From Escherichia phage fEg-Eco06: 45,491 nucleotides of DNA. Below, piece after piece: positions 34,922 to 44,442 of the stretch. The notes beneath the pieces were generated by a model. That model was not told the origin of the DNA, did not search any database, and saw only the letters and a list, made by a program, of their open reading frames with translations. Position numbers and translations under genes: made by a program. Location: sequence record PQ141284.1, one strand, 5' to 3'. Numbering within the stretch: the first letter of the stretch is position 1; every line of letters begins with the position of its first letter.

Positions 34922-37094
34922 ATCGCTTCATCTCCGCACCTTCAGCTACAAGAGGGAACCCCTCCGCCCATTCCGGCAATTCGCACATCAACCGCTCAAG
35001 CTCTGCTACATTGTATTCCGGTGAATCTGGTGTCTCGCAGATAATCTCATCGTGTACGTGAAGTACAATCGGGTAGCCGTTTGCTTCTACGTTCAGCAGG
35101 GCATTAGCCAGCAAATCACGGCACAATGCCTGAGTGCAGTTTTCCACCAGTTTACCCGAGTAGGTGTACTGGAATCCCCACTGCCTGGTTAACTGATTTT
35201 CACCCTGATACTTGATGCGCACGTTAGTAGAAACTTTTCCGTCTTCGTCTGTCTCTTTTGACACGCTCAACCCGACGCCCGGGTATGACATAACGCGACC
35301 TGACGGCAACGTCATGCGCAACCACCAACCAGCGACTTTGTTGCCGTTGTTGTCTGTTTCTACGTTGCGAGAAAACTTAACCCCGCGAGGGCCAGCGGTG
35401 AACTCTTTCCCCGGATTACGGATTGCTGCCATAGCTGCGTCTTCAATATCACGCCAGAAAGCTACTGTTTCCGGGTGGGACTCCCGCCACATACGCTTAA
35501 TTGCGTCGCATGTACGCCAGACTTTCTTATCAAGAATATATGATGGTCGGTCATCCTTTTCACCCGGACGCGGTGGTCGCTTGGCTTCCTGAATACGCGC
35601 CCACTCGTACCCGCGCGCGGTAGCGGCCCAGATGTGGTCAGGGAAAGTCCCATCCATTGTTTTTGCCATATCTACAAGGTCAAGGCCGAGGTTCTTGGCG
35701 AACTGAACGAAAGCCCCGACACCCCCAGCGTACCCAAGCCCCAACTCACATGCTTTACCAATCTGGCGCAGGTCTTTACGTTCCTTCTTAATGTAATCTG
35801 GTTCCATGCCGAACATCTTGCCCGCCGTTACACAGTAAATATCCAGCCCGGCGCGGAACGTATCTAGCGCGGTTTCTTCGCCTGCCAGCCACGCAAGCCC
35901 GCGACCCTCAACGTTAGAGTAATCGGCGACGACAAACTTATGCCCAGCTTCCGGTATAATGCAGCTACGAACGGTAGATGCCGTCAGCTTGGCTACGTCA
36001 AATCGGCGGTGCGCCCGGCCCTTAAGTAACGCTGAAATGCCTTTATCCAGTTCATCATCGTGATAGTACCCACGCGCCAGGTTCTGTGGCTGGAAGCCTT
36101 TACCCGCGAACCGTAACGTACGCTTTGCCCCACCGTACTGGATACACCCGCGGCGTCGGTCGTCCGACGAGCGGCCTAACAGCAGCGGGTTATATTTCGT
36201 GGACGCTGTTGACGCGGCCCCGAGGCGCATTTCGATAATCGTGCGGGCGTCGTCAGGTAAATCATCATCGGCCAGCAGGTCATTCAGCGTCGACTTCTGT
36301 GCGTTGTGTATGCGGTGTGCGGGGGCCAGTTCACGTAGAATAGGCAGAAAGTCCTTACCGGTAAGCGAGCTGCCGTATTTACGTTGAGCTTCTTCCTGTA
36401 ACTGTGCCTTGTGCTTCTCTACGGCTTCAATCGCGGCTTCCGCCAGTGCGACGTCAACCTTAAATCCGCGGTCGTTGATTAACTGGTCAAGTTCCAGTAC
36501 ACGGTCTTCGAACTCGGAGTTACCCCAACGCGGCAGCTTATGGAAGACTTCACGCATCGCAGTGATGTCGCTCACGGCGTACCTGATGAACATCGCCCAC
36601 TCGTCAGGGTGAGTTTCTGCGGTGTAGCGGCGGATTTTGTAGTTCTTCGGCGTCGGTTTAGAGAAACGCTTAATCAGAGCCTTGCCGCGTTTATCTTTCG
36701 CGTTGTCTGCAGACACGCCCAGCACTTCGCACAGCGCATCAAGAGAACCCGGCAGCGCGTGACGGAACGCCCAAATCATAGTATCAATGGTGTTACTTAC
36801 CGGAATATCAAAGCCCCAGCAGTGTTGTTTCATGATTAGGCGATCGAAAAGTCCACCGTTGTGCCACACCATCTTGATGTGGCTGTTTGGCTTCACCAGA
36901 CGGCGTAACGCGCGGTGCAAATCCCCCGGCATGTCGCTGCCGTCGGTGCAGTCCCATACCTGTACAGGCTCGTCATCAAAAGCATAGGTGCAGATAAGCA
37001 CTTCTGTAGTTGGGTGTTCGGCGTAAGCGTATGAACCGACTTTCTTTAAATCGGCTTCGGAGAATGTTTCAAAGTCCAAGAACAGGTAACTCAT
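34911..37094 (-). CDS. DNA polymerase, family A, with N-terminal 3'-5' exonuclease
   Basis: 727 aa; LFLDFETFS exo motif; C-terminal polymerase motifs including KACELGLGYAGG; AAGGG RBS. Confidence 0.8.
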   Translation of the reverse strand: MSYLFLDFETFSEADLKKVGSYAYAEHPTTEVLICTYAFDDEPVQVWDCTDGSDMPGDLHRALRRLVKPNSHIKMVWHNGGLFDRLIMKQHCWGFDIPVSNTIDTMIWAFRHALPGSLDALCEVLGVSADNAKDKRGKALIKRFSKPTPKNYKIRRYTAETHPDEWAMFIRYAVSDITAMREVFHKLPRWGNSEFEDRVLELDQLINDRGFKVDVALAEAAIEAVEKHKAQLQEEAQRKYGSSLTGKDFLPILRELAPAHRIHNAQKSTLNDLLADDDLPDDARTIIEMRLGAASTASTKYNPLLLGRSSDDRRRGCIQYGGAKRTLRFAGKGFQPQNLARGYYHDDELDKGISALLKGRAHRRFDVAKLTASTVRSCIIPEAGHKFVVADYSNVEGRGLAWLAGEETALDTFRAGLDIYCVTAGKMFGMEPDYIKKERKDLRQIGKACELGLGYAGGVGAFVQFAKNLGLDLVDMAKTMDGTFPDHIWAATARGYEWARIQEAKRPPRPGEKDDRPSYILDKKVWRTCDAIKRMWRESHPETVAFWRDIEDAAMAAIRNPGKEFTAGPRGVKFSRNVETDNNGNKVAGWWLRMTLPSGRVMSYPGVGLSVSKETDEDGKVSTNVRIKYQGENQLTRQWGFQYTYSGKLVENCTQALCRDLLANALLNVEANGYPIVLHVHDEIICETPDSPEYNVAELERLMCELPEWAEGFPLVAEGAEMKRYAK

Positions 37095-37152: not shown

Positions 37153-37782
37153 TTAACCACGGCGACGACGTTCGCGGCGCGGTGCTTCATCTTCTTCGTC
37201 GTCTTCCAGGTCATTGACGCTCGCAGCGACTTTAGAACCGCCGAACGCTTTGCCTTCGCCAACGTATTTAATCGCCAGCAGGTTAACGCCGAGGACTTTG
37301 TATTTCTGGCTGAACCAGATTTCAGCGCTTACGTTAGCTAAGCATCCGCTGTAAACCTGTTCACCTTCAATCTGTTCGCCGTCTACATTGAAGTCCTGCT
37401 CTACCTGAGTCTCGCCTTTTTTAGAGGTTACAATCAGCGGTTGTTTCTGTGCCTTCGCTTTGAAGTAGAAGCCTTCCGGGAAGTCTTCAAACGGATTGTC
37501 GCGCTCAGCAATGTCTTTAATCGCGCATTTATCCATGTGCTTACCTTCGCCGTAGTTGGACTTCATCCACTTCTCGGCAGTGGCAGCACCTAATGCTTCT
37601 TCAACTACAGCATAAACAGTGTCGTAGAGTGCGTCGATTTGAGCATGGTCAGACGGCAGGATGATTGTCGCGCTGTACTGGCCTTTAGTGATTGAGCCAT
37701 CGTCGTTTTCACGGTCTTTTTCGCGTTCGAATACGTTAACCCATGCAGTGTTTACTTTACGCAGATTCAGTTTAATACCCAT
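37153..37782 (-). CDS. single-stranded DNA-binding protein-like, acidic C-terminal tail
   Basis: 209 aa; C-terminal NDLEDDEEDE acidic tail; position in recombination module; own promoter. Confidence 0.5.
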   Translation of the reverse strand: MGIKLNLRKVNTAWVNVFEREKDRENDDGSITKGQYSATIILPSDHAQIDALYDTVYAVVEEALGAATAEKWMKSNYGEGKHMDKCAIKDIAERDNPFEDFPEGFYFKAKAQKQPLIVTSKKGETQVEQDFNVDGEQIEGEQVYSGCLANVSAEIWFSQKYKVLGVNLLAIKYVGEGKAFGGSKVAASVNDLEDDEEDEAPRRERRRRG

Positions 37783-37841: not shown

Positions 37842-37870
37842 ACTATAATAGCTAACTATTCATGTGTCAA
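37842..37870 (-). promoter_or_regulatory. sigma70-like promoter (TTGACA-N17-TATAGT)
   Basis: minus strand TTGACA (37870-37865), 17-bp spacer containing GAATAGT, TATAGT (37847-37842). Confidence 0.6.
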
Positions 37871-38059
37871 ATAAAATTTTGCAATAGGGATTATGTTCTC
37901 GAAATTAAGCATATTGGCCGGTTCGAACTCATCCTCTACAGGGTAGTATCGCATCATGGTACCGTTCAAGAACGTGAACGATTCCGAGTGTAGATACCCA
38001 TCCCAGTGCCATACCATCAAAAAATCTTTATCAGTCGGCATTTCATTTACTTGAATCAT
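37856..38059 (-). CDS. hypothetical protein
   Basis: ATG 38059 ATGA-coupled to exonuclease stop, GAGGAGGA RBS; track ORF 37856-38089 trimmed. Confidence 0.45.
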   Translation of the reverse strand: MIQVNEMPTDKDFLMVWHWDGYLHSESFTFLNGTMMRYYPVEDEFEPANMLNFENIIPIAKFYLTHE

Positions 38060-39345
38060 TCTAAATCCTCCTCTGTAACTTGATTCCACTCAGGACGTTT
38101 GTCATCCGCCGTTGCGACGCATGGCGCACCGGGCTTACGGGTAATGAAGTCTTTCAGTTCTTCTTCCGGTACAATTTTAACCGCTTCGGTCGGTGTCATA
38201 AGAACTACCTTTTGCAGCATAGTACCGTACTTCTCGAATACTGCATCGGTATCTTTCCACGCACGATTACCCGGGCGTCCTTCAACCAGTTTATACCCCG
38301 GCACTTTCTTACCGGAATGTAACGCAGCAGCCATAGCTTTCTCAACCTTGTCGATGTGCTGGCGCAACAACGGCAACTTCTCATACTCAGCTACGAGTTG
38401 CTCTGGCGTAAGCTCAAGTGCAAAGTCGTCCTCCAGTTCTTCCGCCAGCCCCGCGTTAACGGTTTTTGTACGCGCTGCGCATTGTTCAGAGAACCGACAC
38501 CACTGACAACCATCTACCGACGGCTTGAAGTCCGACGCTTTCAGGTTCTTTTTACCCCGGAAATAGGCATCAAGAGCCAACAGCGCCCGTTTCTGTGCAA
38601 ACTTAGCGAACAGTTCCAGACCTTCAACCGAGATGTCCCACTCCGATGCACCGCCAGCGTACGGCTGGAAGATGACCAGTCGAACGGTTGTTATGCTATA
38701 ACGTCTCTTGAGTCGGCGATAAACGCCGAGAGCATAAAGCATAAGCTGCTTGTTTTCTTTCGCTTCGACACGATGCCGCCCGGTTTTCAGGTCGCAGATG
38801 ATAAGCATGTGTTCGTCGGTGTTAGCCAGTTCCTGTATGGCAACAAGGTCAGCAGTTCCGAACGTCTCCACAGTTTTAAAAACCCCGGCGTTGCCATCCC
38901 CCGGCTCCCCAGCAACACGAAACATATAGCCAGGATGCAATACCTCAGTAAGATTGACCCGCATTTCCAGCTTAGCGTAAGCCGCTACGTCGATAATCGC
39001 TTTGCAGTAGTCGGTGTACTTGCGCACCTGCTCAATCATGTCCGCCGTAATCAGTACAGCACCTTTCATCGGGCGGATTAGTGCCTTAATCTGGCCTTTG
39101 CCCTCATCCAGCACATAAGCGCCAACTTCACGCTCTAACGGCAACGCAGTTCCGCGAATATAGGCGTTGAGATGGACCTCAGCTATAGTGTGGCACGCAG
39201 TCCCTGTAACGGCGGCTTTACCGGACGTGTTAGGGATATCTTTTTCGCAGGCCAGGGATGCGGCACAACTCAGCCACTTTTTAGCGCCCGATGGCGACAG
39301 TAAGGCGTGAACATCATTATTGCCGCCGCGTTCCTTTAAAATCAT
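38056..39345 (-). CDS. Cas4/RecB-like PD-(D/E)XK exonuclease
   Basis: ICDLKTGRH nuclease core; one N-terminal Cys (WLSCAAS) and C-terminal CQWCRFSEQC cluster typical of Cas4-like Fe-S nucleases; ATG 39345 chosen. Confidence 0.65.
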   Translation of the reverse strand: MILKERGGNNDVHALLSPSGAKKWLSCAASLACEKDIPNTSGKAAVTGTACHTIAEVHLNAYIRGTALPLEREVGAYVLDEGKGQIKALIRPMKGAVLITADMIEQVRKYTDYCKAIIDVAAYAKLEMRVNLTEVLHPGYMFRVAGEPGDGNAGVFKTVETFGTADLVAIQELANTDEHMLIICDLKTGRHRVEAKENKQLMLYALGVYRRLKRRYSITTVRLVIFQPYAGGASEWDISVEGLELFAKFAQKRALLALDAYFRGKKNLKASDFKPSVDGCQWCRFSEQCAARTKTVNAGLAEELEDDFALELTPEQLVAEYEKLPLLRQHIDKVEKAMAAALHSGKKVPGYKLVEGRPGNRAWKDTDAVFEKYGTMLQKVVLMTPTEAVKIVPEEELKDFITRKPGAPCVATADDKRPEWNQVTEEDLE

Positions 39346-39614
39346 ACCCTGCTCTCCCACTGGTCAATTAAATGTCGTGTCTTATGGTCGCAGTGCATAG
39401 CCCACCCATACATCGACTCGAAGACATAAAAATCAGGTTTGGCGAATGTCGTGCGCTTAATCTGCGACACGTGACGGCATATATCTTTAGGTCGTGGTAC
39501 TTTGCCTAAGTACGCCATCTCTTCCATCAGGTGCGAACCGGACGGCGCACGCAACAGCCATAGCGCCTCTGTGTTATCCCGCCTGTCAACGGCGCGGTAG
39601 AGTTGGTAAATCAT
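39342..39614 (-). CDS. hypothetical protein
   Basis: 90 aa ATGA-coupled. Confidence 0.5.
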   Translation of the reverse strand: MIYQLYRAVDRRDNTEALWLLRAPSGSHLMEEMAYLGKVPRPKDICRHVSQIKRTTFAKPDFYVFESMYGWAMHCDHKTRHLIDQWESRV

Positions 39615-39946
39615 TGCGCCTTCTCCTGCATTTTCAGAAAGACAATCATCGCGGCGCGTAGAGGGTTTTTACCGATTACGCATTCGTCTCCAACGTAAAT
39701 CATACTGGTGGCGTCTCCGGTAATACCGTCAATAACCGCATTATCCGGTAAAGCAATCCATTCTGAATTGGTAGCTACAATCGAGATGTTGTTACCGGTG
39801 ATAACAGGCCATGCGTCTTCCACGCGGTTGCAATAATCAACATCACCAGAAGCTAATTCCATCTGATGCCCTCGCGAAACATTGCCGTATAGTGCGCGAC
39901 TAACCCGTGCGTTAATTTCTATGTCTGTTAGATTTTCATATTTCAT
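39611..39946 (-). CDS. hypothetical protein
   Basis: 111 aa ATGA-coupled. Confidence 0.5.
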   Translation of the reverse strand: MKYENLTDIEINARVSRALYGNVSRGHQMELASGDVDYCNRVEDAWPVITGNNISIVATNSEWIALPDNAVIDGITGDATSMIYVGDECVIGKNPLRAAMIVFLKMQEKAQ

Positions 39947-39989
39947 AATTCCGACCCTCAGTTAAAGCGGCCCGAAGGCCGCGAGATAG

Positions 39990-40493
39990 TTATTCTTCTT
40001 CGAAATACTTGTTCTTGATTGCCGTCAGGCGTTCAAGGTACTCGGGCAGGTCTTCATCTTTAATCGCGGCAATCTTCATTTTCTTACCGGTGAACTCCTC
40101 CAGCAGTTCATCGGAATCGTCGCACGCAGCATCGCTAGGACCTTCGTTAATTGCATCGTCGATAGCCTGAATCTGGTCACGAAGAGACTGGTAATCGACC
40201 TCTTCTTTCTCTTCTTCTGGTTCTGGAGTCGGCTCCTCTACTTTAGCTTTACGCGGCTTGCGTTTCGGCTTCTCTTCTTCTTCTGCTGGTTTAGCGTCAA
40301 CGATGTCTTCACCTTCAACAGGGATTTCTTTTGTTGCTTCTTTTTCGCACTCAGCTACCGCTTCTTTGGTATACACTACCGTCTCTACTTCTAACGGCGC
40401 TGCAACTTGTGCTGACTGTTTCGCACTGTTCGCAGCAATCAGTTCATGTGCAACTACGAAACGTTCCAGTAATTTTAAGAATTGTTCTAACAT
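39990..40493 (-). CDS. hypothetical highly acidic protein
   Basis: 167 aa, E/K/P-rich low-complexity centre. Confidence 0.5.
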   Translation of the reverse strand: MLEQFLKLLERFVVAHELIAANSAKQSAQVAAPLEVETVVYTKEAVAECEKEATKEIPVEGEDIVDAKPAEEEEKPKRKPRKAKVEEPTPEPEEEKEEVDYQSLRDQIQAIDDAINEGPSDAACDDSDELLEEFTGKKMKIAAIKDEDLPEYLERLTAIKNKYFEEE

Positions 40494-40515
40494 TTGTTTC
40501 TCCTGTTTATTTAGG

Positions 40516-40731
40516 TTACTCGCCGTCGCCTTCTGTAAGGCTATCGTCTATTAATTCAAATTTACCGTTTGAGTGTTGTATAGCTTCTTGCCCGCAATGG
40601 GCACAGACAATAAGTTTATCGAACCCATCAAACTCATCCCCCACCACGCAAGAAAGTACAAATTTATGTTTTGTACATACTTCTTGAGGTTCACCGAAAA
40701 TTGCGTGAAAACATCTCGCCACTACATTCAT
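40516..40731 (-). CDS. hypothetical zinc-ribbon protein
   Basis: 71 aa; CxxC...CxxC (CAHCG); first gene after promoter 40764-40792. Confidence 0.5.
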   Translation of the reverse strand: MNVVARCFHAIFGEPQEVCTKHKFVLSCVVGDEFDGFDKLIVCAHCGQEAIQHSNGKFELIDDSLTEGDGE

Positions 40732-40763
40732 CTTCTGTCTCTCCTCTCGTTTGGTATGGGTTA

Positions 40764-40792
40764 ACTATAATAGCGAACTATTCACATGTCAA
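40764..40792 (-). promoter_or_regulatory. sigma70-like promoter (TTGACA-N17-TATAGT)
   Basis: minus strand TTGACA (40792-40787), spacer containing TGTGAATAGT, TATAGT (40769-40764); second ACTATTCACAT box at 40821-40831. Confidence 0.6.
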
Positions 40793-40856
40793 TGGGCTTT
40801 TCTAAAATAATTAATATGGTACTATTCACATATTAACTGACTAAGGAGTAATTGAC

Positions 40857-41072
40857 ATGCAACCATCTGAACTAGGCATCCGTATGGAACAACGCCGTAA
40901 AGAACTCGGCATCTCCCAGCGCCGTCTGGCTGTCCTGACTGGCGTTTCTCAGGGCGCGATTAACCAACTGGCACTTGGAGTAACTCAGGACGTCCGCCCG
41001 GCGACGCTGTTTAAACTGGCGGAAGTGCTTGAAGTAGACGCCAAGTGGTTGGCGTTAGGTGAAGGGGCTTAA
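40857..41072 (+). CDS. XRE-family HTH transcriptional regulator (Cro/CI-like)
   Basis: 71 aa; LGISQRRLAVLTGVSQGAINQLALG helix-turn-helix; AAGGAG RBS; divergent from early operon. Confidence 0.75.
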   Translation: MQPSELGIRMEQRRKELGISQRRLAVLTGVSQGAINQLALGVTQDVRPATLFKLAEVLEVDAKWLALGEGA

Positions 41073-41090
41073 GCCCCTTTTCTTTTTATT
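41063..41090 (+). terminator. intrinsic terminator
   Basis: AAGGGGC / GCCCCTT stem with TTAA loop followed by TTCTTTTTATT. Confidence 0.65.
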
Positions 41091-41283
41091 GCACCTTTAT
41101 CGGGTATCTTTTGCGAAACTTACCTAACCCGCAGTACACGCTGTAAGCCTCTGTGTAACTGAACACAACATGATACCCGCGCCCATAAGGAACTACGTTA
41201 AGAACTTCTACTACTTCGCCTCTGTGGTTGGTGTATTTATTACCTTTCAGTTCGTCGCTTACTTCTTTAAATTTACCGCTCAT
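41086..41283 (-). CDS. hypothetical protein
   Basis: 65 aa ATGA-coupled to primase/helicase stop with embedded GAGGAGGA RBS. Confidence 0.45.
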   Translation of the reverse strand: MSGKFKEVSDELKGNKYTNHRGEVVEVLNVVPYGRGYHVVFSYTEAYSVYCGLGKFRKRYPIKVQ

Positions 41284-43547
41284 TCCAAATCCTCCTCTGT
41301 CACTGTCAACATTTCATTCGGTTCGTATATTGTCTTTGGAATCTTGTTATCAGTTATTCTGGTGTTCAGCCTGTAACGACCTGGGATTATCTGATTGTTT
41401 TCGTCAGTACCCGGAACAAGATACCCGGCCTCAACCATTTTCTTAATCTTCCCGCGTTCTATGGCTTCTTTGGAGTTAAACGCCTTTGCGTTGGGGTCTG
41501 ACTGTGCGAGCTTATTCGCCGCGGCGACTGTGATGCCTTCGTTGCCGTTGTAGGTTCCTTCCGCCAGTTCAAACGCCGCGAGTATCGTGGCCTCCGAACT
41601 GTTGACGGCGTTCTCTACGGTTTTACGTACATTTTCTTTACCTTCTTTCGTCAACCCTTCTTCCCGCTCTTTCTCCTCGTCAGTTTTGAACGGCTCGAAA
41701 CCCCACGGCATCAACACAAGCGCCTTGTGTGGTTCAGGCAGGTCCAGGTTTACGATTGTGCCGTATTCCTCTGTGCTACCCAGGAACTCAACCGCTCGGT
41801 ATTCTTTAGGCGGCGGCGCTTCACGGAACTGTACCGACTCCAGCACCATGCCAACCGTCTTCTGCTGAGGCCCGTGCTTGAATTTCGAGTGATATACGTT
41901 TATCTGACGGTCGGTTGCACGTTCGATTGTCAGTTCCACGTCAACACCCGCATACAGCGCCCCACTGCCGCGTGCTTTCTTTCCACCCTTCGGCGTATGG
42001 TGGACAACGCCTACTGCGGCTTTAGTTGCATCGCGTACTTCTTTCAGAATGGCGATAACTTTACCCATGCCGATTGCTGTTGATGAACTGTTCTCGTCGA
42101 ACTTATCAATCGTCAGTGCCAGGGTCTGGTTAAGGGTGTCGAACGCAACCATGCCAATTGGCTCGTCGCCAGCAGTTTCGCGCATTAACTTAATCAGGCT
42201 TTTAAGTTTGCCGACTTCGCCCATATCGATGACATGTACATAATCTTTACCTTCCTCGCCGTATTTAGCCGCGAGCGCATCAATACGTGTACGTGTGGCT
42301 GCCCCACCCTCGCCGTCGATATAGAAATGGTGACAACGCTGGGTGTCAGCCCCTGCAAACCGGTATCCGGCGGCGCTCAGGTACATCATCCCCAGCGTAT
42401 AGAATGATTTGTACGTGCCCGATTCTCCGACGATACCCCAGATACAATCCGACGGCATGTACCCCTCAACGACGAAATCAGCCTTTACCGGCTCCGGTAA
42501 CTCGTCCTCCTCTGAGTCCTCGTCGTCTTCCAGGTCGTCGAGGCTGCATGAGACAGATTCACGCGCCCCCCAACCGATGGCCTCTGCGACTTCACTGAAC
42601 GGCAGCCCGGTCGCATCGCACGCGTACTTCCACACCTCTTTCGGTGACAGGCCTTCTGTCGCCGTAATGTCTGTGTCGTGAATCATGGTTACGTTAGGCG
42701 CTTCGTATCCCTCGCGCGGGAAGCACAGCAGGAAGTCGTCCGGACGCGGCGTTGGGTCACTGTAGTTTTCAGCGTGTTCCGGTGTAGCTGGCATCTTAAG
42801 GCCGCGTGGTGTCATAACTCCGCCGTACTCGAACGCCAGCGCTTCGAACGCATCAGTAAACGCGGAGCGCAGTTCTTCCGGTATCTGGTAATCCGATGCG
42901 CTGCTCACCTCGTAATCCGGTATGCCTTCCAGTAACTCGTCCGGGTCAATCAGGTCGTTGCGACGCGACCAGATAACGGTAGAGCCGACCGGCGGCAGGT
43001 ACATCGGCTGGGACAGAGTGAACCCGCTGCGGTCAGCGCCCATGCCTTCGAAGAAGTGCTCCAGCAAGCCATGACGAACACGGATGATGTCGCCGCCTTC
43101 AACCGGGCGGCCCAGCGGCATGACGACGCGAAAGCGCGGTGACTCATCAGTATGTGATGCCGTGGTATACAGGCACATAACCTGACGGCTGCGCTTAACC
43201 AGGCGCACCGCTTCCTGGTACTCTTCCGGTGTTGCACTGTCGAAGTCCAGATACGCCAGCGACGATTTGCTCACAGACGCGTCACAGCGATAGAAGAAGC
43301 CTTTACGCGCTTGTTTAAAGCCACCGGTTTCCGGGTCTTTTACGGTGCTGTGCGCAGAGTCGCACGCGGCAGTAATATAGCCTGGCGCTGTCTTCGGGTT
43401 GATCCCGTCACGAACAGCATCGAGCGGCTGGATTAACTCTTTCAGGTCATCCAGTGTTGCCGTGTGTGTGGTTCTGACGTTTATATCCTTTTTCTCTGCC
43501 CGCGCGTTGCGACGTGACCACGAGTAGGATAAAATTACATCGGACAT
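41280..43547 (-). CDS. DNA primase/helicase (RecA-fold ATPase with N-terminal primase-like domain)
   Basis: 755 aa; Walker A GESGTYKS, Walker B-like MVAFDTL; large N-terminal domain; ends in EEDLE. Confidence 0.6.
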   Translation of the reverse strand: MSDVILSYSWSRRNARAEKKDINVRTTHTATLDDLKELIQPLDAVRDGINPKTAPGYITAACDSAHSTVKDPETGGFKQARKGFFYRCDASVSKSSLAYLDFDSATPEEYQEAVRLVKRSRQVMCLYTTASHTDESPRFRVVMPLGRPVEGGDIIRVRHGLLEHFFEGMGADRSGFTLSQPMYLPPVGSTVIWSRRNDLIDPDELLEGIPDYEVSSASDYQIPEELRSAFTDAFEALAFEYGGVMTPRGLKMPATPEHAENYSDPTPRPDDFLLCFPREGYEAPNVTMIHDTDITATEGLSPKEVWKYACDATGLPFSEVAEAIGWGARESVSCSLDDLEDDEDSEEDELPEPVKADFVVEGYMPSDCIWGIVGESGTYKSFYTLGMMYLSAAGYRFAGADTQRCHHFYIDGEGGAATRTRIDALAAKYGEEGKDYVHVIDMGEVGKLKSLIKLMRETAGDEPIGMVAFDTLNQTLALTIDKFDENSSSTAIGMGKVIAILKEVRDATKAAVGVVHHTPKGGKKARGSGALYAGVDVELTIERATDRQINVYHSKFKHGPQQKTVGMVLESVQFREAPPPKEYRAVEFLGSTEEYGTIVNLDLPEPHKALVLMPWGFEPFKTDEEKEREEGLTKEGKENVRKTVENAVNSSEATILAAFELAEGTYNGNEGITVAAANKLAQSDPNAKAFNSKEAIERGKIKKMVEAGYLVPGTDENNQIIPGRYRLNTRITDNKIPKTIYEPNEMLTVTEEDLE

Positions 43548-43605
43548 GTTGTATTTCCTTCAGCAAGTAATTTGGCCTCGGCGTTCACCGCGTCGGGGCT
43601 TTCTT

Positions 43606-43839
43606 TTATTCCAGGTCTTCTAAAGTAGCTGTCATTCCGCGAACTTCAGCATCAGCGCTATATTTCCCACCAACGTTTTTCACGACACCGGATTTAACCA
43701 GCACCTTCAACGACCCTTCAATAATGGCTGAACTATAGTACTTAAAATAACTACGGCGCAAGTCGATAACACTGCATGACCCTTTTTTACGTGTTAACGA
43801 AACGACCGCCGTAAATACGCGTGACTGGAACTCTGTCAT
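43606..43839 (-). CDS. hypothetical protein
   Basis: 77 aa; ends in LEDLE. Confidence 0.45.
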   Translation of the reverse strand: MTEFQSRVFTAVVSLTRKKGSCSVIDLRRSYFKYYSSAIIEGSLKVLVKSGVVKNVGGKYSADAEVRGMTATLEDLE

Positions 43840-44006
43840 TTCACATTCTCCTTAATCCACGCTTCCACTTTCTCTGGGTCAAACGTACCGGGCTGACGAC
43901 GGCCCATAATGCGAATACAGCAATCAGGGAACTTCCCACTCTTTAGCCAGTTATTCAGCGTTCGACGAGTAACCCCAATACGCTCAGCTACTTCATTCTG
44001 TGTCAT
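43836..44006 (-). CDS. HTH DNA-binding protein (AlpA/excisionase-like)
   Basis: ATG 44006 with GAGGG RBS (track ORF starts at TTG 44039); NEVAERIGVTRRTLNNWLKSGKFP helix-turn-helix. Confidence 0.55.
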   Translation of the reverse strand: MTQNEVAERIGVTRRTLNNWLKSGKFPDCCIRIMGRRQPGTFDPEKVEAWIKENVK

Positions 44007-44442
44007 TCTCAAACCCTCATTATCAGTTAACGAAACCAAGTATACATTGCGAATAATGGGAAATCAAACATAATCGCACCTATTGACATTATGAAAATCT
44101 TCGTTTAAGGTGCTTCTATATCTTAGTTACTTTGATTCCTGTTCACCTTGTAATACCCGCTTGAAACGCAGCGGCGCCAAAGCGCCAGCGAAGTGTTAAG
44201 CGGCAGATTACTGAACATAAGAATTACCGTAACTTTCCTTCCGTAGTATCTCTGGTTGCCCTGGGCAAGTTCTATTCTCATCGGCAGCATATCTCTTAAG
44301 TATATGATAATTAAAAGTTTCTATAGTTGCCGTGAGCAATGTTGAGAGTACTTCACTCCGCTGGGGTGGGCTAACGCCCACCCACTGCGTTGCGTACTCT
44401 TTTAAGAAACGAAAGAATCACAGCGGCAACGTAACTATTCTC

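Follow-up and report, generated by a model that had tools for sequence, protein, structure and literature searches.

Conserved [TS]-x-x-D-L tails on replication proteins of Escherichia phage fEg-Eco06 and related siphoviruses: a candidate replisome docking tag with overlaid ribosome-binding codons

Results

Shared C-termini in the replication region

Escherichia phage fEg-Eco06 (PQ141284.1; 45,491 nucleotides (nt), the whole of which is called the window here) carries a replication region in which three proteins end in nearly the same acidic peptide: the T7 gp4-like helicase-primase (HP) ends in ...MLTVTEEDLE, the DUF2800 (Cas4-like) exonuclease (EXO) in ...WNQVTEEDLE (429 amino acids (aa) when counted from an ATG, with an alternative GTG start at 39360), and a protein of 77 aa (p77) in ...GMTATLEDLE. 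The region is matched by 476 phage records and is of the kind found in Kagunavirus-type siphoviruses (Guernseyvirinae, K1G-like), the best matches being Escherichia phages BEU33 and BEU35 with 95% identity. It contains the duf2800-gp2.5-polA arrangement, a known conserved gene module (PMC8093625), in which EXO is accompanied by a gp2.5-type single-stranded DNA-binding protein (SSB) and a family A DNA polymerase (Pol); the coordinates are collected in Table 1. The original prediction, made from the DNA letters of the window, held that these shared tails, together with an acidic tail of the SSB, could be a common docking motif comparable to the acidic C-termini of T7 replication proteins; the interval that it covered (37856-43839) leaves out the SSB gene itself (37153-37782).

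The shared ends are real and are not what chance would give. Among the 518 six-frame open reading frames (ORFs) of at least 40 aa in the window, only HP, EXO and p77 end in [DE]LE or have DLE within their last eight residues, and the amino-acid composition of the window puts the probability of EDLE at a given C-terminus at about 1e-5. At the DNA level, the 21-nt sequence ACAGAGGAGGATTTRGAATGA occurs exactly twice in the window (38056-38076 and 41280-41300), at the ends of EXO and HP, and no match to it appeared in 100 dinucleotide-preserving shuffles, even with three mismatches allowed. Chance as the origin of the shared tails was rejected on these grounds and on that of the multi-locus ORF scan described below. 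The wider pattern [ST].[DEN]DL has seven occurrences over the six frames of the window, all seven of them inside replication proteins.

As had been noticed beforehand, the nearly identical 3' ends of HP and EXO embed the ribosome-binding site (RBS) and the start of the next gene. Both copies of ACAGAGGAGGATTTRGAATGA contain the Shine-Dalgarno (SD) sequence GAGGAGGA; after a spacer of 6 nt comes an ATG overlapping the TGA with which the upstream gene ends (ATGA), and in both cases the downstream ORF, of 67 aa after EXO and of 65 aa after HP, matches a PHROG family. Both junctions thus show what we required of translational coupling, namely an SD complementarity of at least 5 nt, situated 5-10 nt ahead of a start codon overlapping the stop of the preceding gene, and a real downstream ORF. 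Over their last seven codons HP and EXO differ twice only, both times at synonymous third positions (GTT/GTG for Val and TTA/TTG for Leu). The p77 tail is written with other codons (TTA GAA GAC CTG GAA TAA) and overlaps no gene.

Table 1. Genes and sequence features of the tail-bearing replication region; positions refer to the window, except in the last row
Feature	Position	Strand	Match or remark
Family A DNA polymerase (Pol), 727 aa	34911-37094	minus	
gp2.5-type SSB / annealing protein, 209 aa	37153-37782	minus	DUF2815, Enc34 ORF6 family; PF10991; phrog_112
SSB basic C-terminus APRRERRRRG	37156-37185	minus	
SSB subterminal motif copy and acidic run	37186-37224	minus	ASVNDLEDDEEDE
67-aa accessory ORF	37856-38059	minus	ATGA-coupled to EXO; phrog_6314, E=1e-24
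DUF2800/PD-(D/E)XK (Cas4-like) exonuclease (EXO), 429 aa	38056-39345	minus	PF10926, E=7e-66; phrog_69
EXO tail VTEEDLE	38059-38079	minus	stop codon 38056-38058
SD for 67-aa ORF	38066-38073	minus	GAGGAGGA, formed by EXO tail codons
Several small genes of the replication region			between EXO and the 65-aa ORF
65-aa accessory ORF	41086-41283	minus	coupled to HP via ATGA overlap; phrog_36357, E=5e-49
Helicase-primase (HP), 755 aa	41280-43547	minus	T7 gp4-like (AAA_25/RepA-type ATPase); phrog_3228, E=2e-286; PF13481
HP tail VTEEDLE	41283-41303	minus	stop codon 41280-41282
SD for 65-aa ORF	41290-41297	minus	GAGGAGGA, Glu-Glu-Asp codons of HP tail
HP linker motif copy	42501-42548	minus	CSLDDLEDDEDSEEDE, between primase and helicase domains
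p77, 77 aa	43606-43839	minus	phrog_5169; no Pfam match
p77 tail ATLEDLE	43609-43629	minus	
HTH_17 protein	43836-44039	minus	
62-aa tail-bearing protein	about 8885-9080 in loci L056-L062		

Conservation of the tail as protein

The comparison was made over 81 loci from four lineages (Kagunavirus, Jerseyvirus, Dhillonvirus and a group of Klebsiella phages resembling VLCpiS11a), 74 of which were taken from IMG/VR with the exonuclease as probe, and all tails were extracted. Additional homologue searches with HP, p77 and SSB recovered mainly close relatives and were used for tail statistics rather than for depth. The resulting consensus is [VA]-[TS]-[ED]-x-D-L-x(0-4)-COOH, so that EDLE, originally taken as the shared unit, has to give way to a core that reads [TS]-x-x-D-L. 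In 178 tails the Asp (GAT/GAC) and the Leu (TTA/TTG/CTG/CTT) are invariant in spite of synonymous codon turnover. Thr and Ser are the only residues at position -3, and their codons belong to three families (ACN, AGY and TCN). Four residues occur at position -4 (Val, Ala, Thr and Ile); at position -2 the tails have Glu or Asp, except in p77, which has Leu or Pro there, and position -1 and the residues beyond the Leu vary; the Leu is the only hydrophobic residue of tails that end in D-L-E or D-L-x. When both strands of 80 loci were scanned (15,475 ORFs, each at least 35 aa long), the pattern matched EXO, HP, p77 and, in one lineage, a 62-aa protein coupled to Pol, and no other ORF.

Nearly every homologue carries the tail. 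This is the case for HP in 75/75 loci, and 117 of 120 HP protein clusters end in DLE, even though identity over the last 200 aa of HP drops to 35-60% inside Guernseyvirinae and the tail comes after this hypervariable C-terminal region. For EXO the count is 77/80, the exceptions being one Leu-to-Ser change, one read-through extension and one truncation, and the tail stands outside the domain, as the Pfam DUF2800 match stops at residue 418 of 429. An exhaustive HMMER search extends this further, with D-L within the last five residues of all 18 nearest DUF2800 cluster representatives (34-58% identity), mostly preceded by acidic or polar residues; more distant DUF2800 exonucleases have other acidic/hydrophobic tails (DDF, DDLL, EDLI and DDLF).

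The original prediction would have failed had the tail been conserved only where a downstream RBS needs it, and this is not what is seen. Genes with nothing coupled behind them still encode D-L in 43/43 cases for HP, 28/30 for EXO and 26/26 for p77, so that the tail is neither lost nor free to vary there. In Bas73, ZCEC5 and fTaEco01, which lack the 65-aa ORF and have no ORF downstream of HP, the gene ends in ...GAGGAGGATTTGGAA/G TAG and runs straight into a terminator with VTEEDLE intact. Phage Jersey, with no gene downstream of HP, writes the end as ACA GAA CGG GAT TTA GAG TAA (TERDLE), where the SD is destroyed and D-L-E is kept by synonymous changes. The EXO genes of K1G, fTaEco01 and Snoke end in AGT GAA GAA GAT TTR GAA TAA (SEEDLE), with the SD erased by two synonymous Glu changes and a promoter of the TTGACA-N17-TATAGT type directly after the gene. 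Uncoupled EXO genes write the same residues as GAAGAAGA, and an SD of at least 5 nt is present in 0/30 uncoupled against 29/50 coupled EXO genes.

Between lineages, too, the peptide outlasts its DNA. HP and EXO end in ATDDDLKD and ATDEDLSNE in Dhillonvirus and in ASDEDLNS and A[ST]DEDLS in the Klebsiella group, with codons unrelated to those of the window and in proteins that retain 44-56% (EXO) and about 31% (HP) identity to its own. The protein-versus-nucleotide comparison of homologues is thus decided in favor of the protein, and the tail shows the traits of a short linear motif: few invariant residues, a disordered and fast-evolving context, and conservation despite codon turnover. In p77, EXO and HP, moreover, it forms a short acidic end to the chain, beyond the folded domain.

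Taken at the level of sequence comparison, these data show that selection acting on the protein preserves the motif in four phage lineages, whether or not a gene follows, and that the codon choice GAGGAGGA is a second layer, used where a small accessory ORF sits directly behind the tail. Since the motif reads Glu-Glu-Asp in the frame that the ATGA overlap fixes, choosing GAG-GAG-GAT is enough to make a strong SD. The identity between the HP and EXO ends would follow from the same constraints, as the peptide fixes V-T-E-E-D-L-E, the SD needs GAG-GAG-GA and the overlap needs GAA-TGA, which accounts for most identical codons; given that the DNA diverges in uncoupled lineages and genes, gene conversion is unnecessary to explain the 21-nt identity.

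Accessory genes around the tails

The positions directly behind the EXO and HP stops are insertion hot spots, with at least eight and at least five unrelated small-ORF families, respectively, in loci L001-L080. The inserted ORFs always begin with the ATGA overlap, and insert-free genomes have a promoter (after EXO) or a terminator (after HP) immediately 3' of the stop. Exchange between the two slots via the shared 21-mer was tested, and neither cross-slot homologues nor any family common to the EXO and HP slots was found. The window also has two nearly identical promoter-like sites on the minus strand (37842-37870 and 40764-40792; TTGACA-N17-TATAGT, 11/12 matches, with shared flanks), one upstream of the SSB gene and the other facing a divergent cro-like HTH gene (40857-41072, plus strand); judging by their letters, they may be a repeated promoter/operator.

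The AlphaFold2 (AF2) model of p77 has a mean predicted local distance difference test score (pLDDT) of 85; the score exceeds 90 across about residues 1-60 and stays under 50 in residues 67-77. The Foldseek matches of the model are DNA-binding domains of the general winged-helix type (T4 MotA N-terminal domain, LexA, IclR and MarR). On this model p77 is a predicted small winged-helix protein with a disordered C-terminal tail. All 26 of its homologues end in A-[TS]-[LP]-E-D-L-E, none with a coupled downstream gene. Its slot upstream of HP is mosaic (window and loci L002, L011 and L030), being occupied by p77, by a 91-aa K1G-type protein ending in ISRDLE, or by tail-free proteins of 96, 70 or 77 aa, for which reason p77 would be an accessory client and not a core one. 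In the 58-nt gap between p77 and HP lies a hairpin with an 11-bp stem (43574-43600) that scores as a terminator on the plus (antisense) strand only; a related hairpin is found at the same place in 6/6 relatives.

In the Klebsiella VLCpiS11a-like lineage the 62-aa protein (MYKHNRNRPHETRIP...ATDEDLE) bears the tail, lies upstream of the Pol gene and is ATGA-coupled to it. A further tail-bearing client may be the highly acidic 167-aa protein of phrog_3127 (39990-40493, minus strand), as far as its end and those of its counterparts suggest: it ends in ...KYFEEE, a similarly placed protein in L082 (1730-2290) ends in ...KYFDFD, and the counterpart in L085 (4300-4773) ends in ...ADPLGDL, which resembles the end of the L085 SSB (...DDPLGGL).

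Internal copies in SSB, HP, EXO and Pol

The SSB had been credited with an acidic tail, and the NDLEDDEEDE run is indeed present, within residues 187-199 (segment GSKVAASVNDLEDDEEDE). It is not terminal, as the basic APRRERRRRG comes after it. D191 and L192 are invariant in alignment A4, x-[NDE]-[DE]-D-L-[EDG]-D-D follows the oligonucleotide-binding (OB) fold immediately in all lineages, and so is the PRRxRRRR-type end conserved in all of them. The D-L motif is present in HP and SSB of all lineages; the SSB copy, however, is subterminal, with a basic tail after it. In the SSB end at 37156-37224, what follows the D-L motif is zwitterionic, with alternating acidic and basic blocks up to the PRRxRRRR end; it measures 28 aa in the window and 59-92 aa in Dhillonvirus, Klebsiella-phage and metagenomic relatives (L056, L064, L072 and L082). 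The tails of T7 gp2.5 and Enc34 ORF6, by comparison, are purely acidic.

Two other core proteins have internal copies. In HP, the linker between the primase and helicase domains contains C-[TS]-x-x-D-L-[ED], which aligns in all four lineages, and the EXO proteins of Dhillonvirus and the Klebsiella group have a second, internal TATD[ED]DLGD. The HP linker also holds a third GAGGAGGA (42505-42512, minus strand), on the codons for SEED; it was considered as an internal start like that of T7 gp4B and dropped, because no start codon comes after it. Likewise set aside was TATLDDLKE at the HP N-terminus, probably a structural helix, which is found only in the window and its close relative ZCEC5.

Pol has no copy of the motif in its tail or in a linker. 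It does contain an internal STLNDLLADDDLPDD (STLNDLL..., residues 268-282; 36249-36293, minus strand) that is kept in all lineages together with its flanks; this co-conservation led us to discard it as a docking-tag copy and to regard it as, probably, a structural helix or a linker between the exonuclease and polymerase domains. Searched against PDB with phmmer, Pol gave weak local matches only (E about 1e-7, Pol I palm/fingers), too distant for T7-like basic patches or a thioredoxin-binding insertion to be mapped on it. Two loci have Pol ORFs of 1032 aa (L045) and 1062 aa (L068), as opposed to about 727-773 aa elsewhere, a length that suggests an inserted element, e.g., an intein or a homing endonuclease.

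Co-variation of tails

The variable part of the tail changes in step between proteins. In Guernseyvirinae both HP and EXO have Glu at position -2, and in Dhillonvirus and the Klebsiella group both have Asp there. In five distant metagenomic duf2800-gp2.5-polA modules, EXO and its cognate SSB share a tail of another class, either DFxxL...DL[LIF] or one with a terminal aromatic residue. Thus EXO and SSB end in ..DFNNLDIEDLI and ..DFDDLSTEEADDLA in L088 and in ..DFEATLDDLL and ..EFDDLGMDETEDLPL in L087, and in L089 EXO ends in ..GETW, a PrimPol-D5 helicase in ..LEDW and SSB in ..DDIDF.

Discussion

The reading that we favor, with a probability of roughly 60%, is that the EDLE-type tails are a short linear motif on disordered protein ends that would act as a common docking tag of the replisome, with RBS codon choice laid over it. 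Both the docking and the identity of the partner are inferred, in the style of T7. The motif would sit on the disordered ends of HP, EXO and p77, with additional copies at the start of the disordered SSB tail and in the HP linker, and would bring these DNA-handling proteins to one shared replisome site, where helicase, nuclease, SSB and DNA-binding adaptor could exchange or compete at the fork. Several proteins bearing the same peptide imply a single receptor, and Pol, being the sole core module protein without a copy in its tail or linker, is the leading candidate, as it would also be by analogy with T7. The DNA-binding groove of the gp2.5-type SSB could come second, followed by the HP helicase domain or a host factor. 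T/S-x-x-D is the pattern of a helix N-capping box, and for this reason the tag may form one helical turn that presents the Leu.

The comparison with T7 has much in its favor. In T7 the tails dock on basic patches of the gp5 DNA polymerase/thioredoxin complex and on the OB groove of gp2.5. The acidic C-tails of gp4 bind to such patches on gp5, and processivity drops when the tails are deleted (PMC12593628); the gp2.5 tail contacts both polymerase and helicase and competes with single-stranded DNA (ssDNA) for its own OB fold (PMC10359462). In the crystal of the Enc34 DUF2815 SSB, the acidic tail is inserted into the groove of a neighbor (PMC5686142). With a gp4-like HP, a gp2.5-type SSB and a family A Pol, the window encodes a replisome of the same type, its SSB has the motif and, in other lineages, EXO tails track the tail class of the cognate SSB, so the analogy on which the original prediction relied fits. 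In both systems more than one replisome protein ends in a peptide that is short, acidic and disordered and has a single key hydrophobic residue. They differ in the core, which is [TS]-x-x-D-L here and an acidic run ending in Phe in T7; in the presence of the tag also on a Cas4-like exonuclease and on small accessory proteins; and in the SSB, whose copy is subterminal and gives way to acidic blocks that alternate with basic ones up to a poly-Arg tip.

Several observations weigh on the other side. T7 tails rely on a critical terminal aromatic anchor (Phe), which the motif of the window lacks; a terminal aromatic residue is found only in the distant module L089 (..ETW, ..EDW and ..IDF). The SSB copy is not C-terminal, and the AF2 model of the full-length SSB, built on a 15-sequence alignment, has a mean pLDDT of 37, from which docking of the D-L in the OB groove cannot be read. 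Both the HP linker copy and the motif-like stretch of Pol may be structural elements and not docking sites. Many Kagunaviruses hold unrelated, tail-free proteins in the p77 slot, making p77 evolutionarily dispensable, and the 91-aa protein of K1G (ORF41) shares with p77 only the last 12 nt (DLE and stop) and the intergenic region, which looks like a recombination junction and not like independent selection. Finally, the permutation test relating EXO tails to those of the cognate SSBs, significant as it is (p=0.0007 for 11 lineages and p=0.005 for nine non-redundant ones), mainly separates two broad tail classes, and the cognate SSB is often not the top-ranked match for the EXO tail.

Other explanations differ in how much of this they can accommodate. 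The most deflationary is that the tail is a mere by-product of translational coupling, GAGGAGGA and the ATGA overlap just happening to read E-E-D-L-E. Both VTEEDLE tails of the window do embed GAGGAGGA, the 6 nt and the ATGA of real small ORFs, and the GAG-GAG choice in EXO correlates with coupling. The tail persists, nevertheless, before TAG or TAA stops that lead into a terminator or promoter, where synonymous or neighboring changes have erased the SD, in the never-coupled p77 and in lineages with unrelated codons, and we consider this explanation next to untenable. Only a little better placed, and still very improbable, is the idea that the 3' ends are conserved as nucleotides, serving as recombination linkers or being homogenized by gene conversion at module boundaries, with the peptide incidental. 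It draws on the mosaic hot spots of many unrelated ORFs behind both tails, on the 19/21 nt shared by HP and EXO in Kagunavirus, and on the K1G ORF41 case described above. Between lineages, though, the DNA diverges completely under a persisting peptide, the two genes encode Ser differently (one by AGC, the other by TCC), Leu is spread over four codons, and the HP and EXO tails of Dhillonvirus share little DNA.

More serious are two readings that accept selection on the peptide and place its function elsewhere. The tails could act in cis, as DNA mimics on the DNA-binding surface of their own protein (autoinhibition or tuning of specificity), with no shared receptor. All carriers are DNA-binding proteins, the T7 gp2.5 tail does compete with ssDNA for its own OB fold (PMC10359462), and deletion of the Enc34 SSB tail alters discrimination between ssDNA and double-stranded DNA (PMC5686142). 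One would not expect from this, however, the same [TS]-x-x-D-L core, an invariant Asp-Leu and a lineage-wide Glu/Asp switch on four unrelated folds, nor EXO tails that track those of the cognate SSB across lineages, which leaves it an unlikely explanation, if the strongest of the four. Slightly less likely still is recognition by a host factor, be it a replication or repair protein that is recruited or a protease that reads a C-terminal degron. Those DL-type lineages that can be assigned to a host infect Enterobacteriaceae, and the tails of the distant modules resemble the bacterial SSB C-terminus (DFDDI...), which would suit the recruitment of host SSB-binding proteins. Internal copies in SSB, in the HP linker and in EXO loops speak against a strictly C-terminal degron, and TEEDLE is not known to resemble the clamp-binding motif, the C-terminus of E. 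coli SSB or any established ClpX/Lon tag.

The docking-tag reading can be carried further, with correspondingly more doubt. We put forward, tentatively and as something we would sooner bet against than on, a replisome-wide 'T-x-x-D-L box' that would serve clamp-less T7-type siphovirus replisomes as a hub client motif, much as clamp-binding motifs do elsewhere. HP, EXO, SSB, p77 and the 62-aa Pol-coupled protein would alternate on one site of Pol or SSB; p77 would be a winged-helix adaptor recruiting the replisome to a DNA site; the DNA that encodes the motif would serve a second time, as a prefabricated RBS 'landing pad' where accessory genes can insert; and DUF2800 exonucleases in general would carry tails imitating that of their cognate SSB.

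Other known systems offer partial parallels. The bacterial SSB tip (...DDDIPF) is likewise acidic with a hydrophobic end, is carried by a disordered linker and makes replisome and repair contacts, and distant DUF2800 exonucleases end in very SSB-like tails (DFDDI and DDLF); there, however, one bearer of the peptide meets many receptors, whereas this phage has several bearers. Clamp-binding and PIP-box motifs resemble the tag in being one short linear motif by which many clients take turns on a hub, with lineage-specific variants, and differ in that no sliding clamp is encoded here, the sequences are unrelated and the hub is only a candidate. ATGA-overlap coupling with the SD in the upstream gene is what both VTEEDLE ends do for the 67-aa and 65-aa ORFs, with the difference that here the SD is laid over a selected peptide (dual coding) and the junction is a slot for many unrelated small ORFs. 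The work on the duf2800-gp2.5-polA module (PMC8093625) covers gene context only. Searches of open-access texts turned up no paper that describes the motif, its presence on DUF2800 exonucleases and accessory proteins, or its second role as an RBS slot. That T7 proteins share acidic tails, and that the bacterial SSB tip is a hub, is textbook knowledge.

The T7 replisome, of all minimal replication machines the best understood, is glued together by acidic tails that its proteins share. By analogy, Kagunavirus, Jerseyvirus and Dhillonvirus, large groups of coliphages and Salmonella phages that are used in therapy, seem to follow a T7-like tail logic with another peptide and additional clients, namely a recombination exonuclease and small adaptors. 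The VTEEDLE ends of HP and EXO are also a clean case of dual coding, in which a selected peptide supplies the RBS exploited by mobile small ORFs. A tag of six residues with two invariant positions gives a concrete and cheap handle on an unstudied replisome, and it may account for the coupling of exonuclease and SSB/annealase activities to replication in duf2800-gp2.5-polA, a widespread module.

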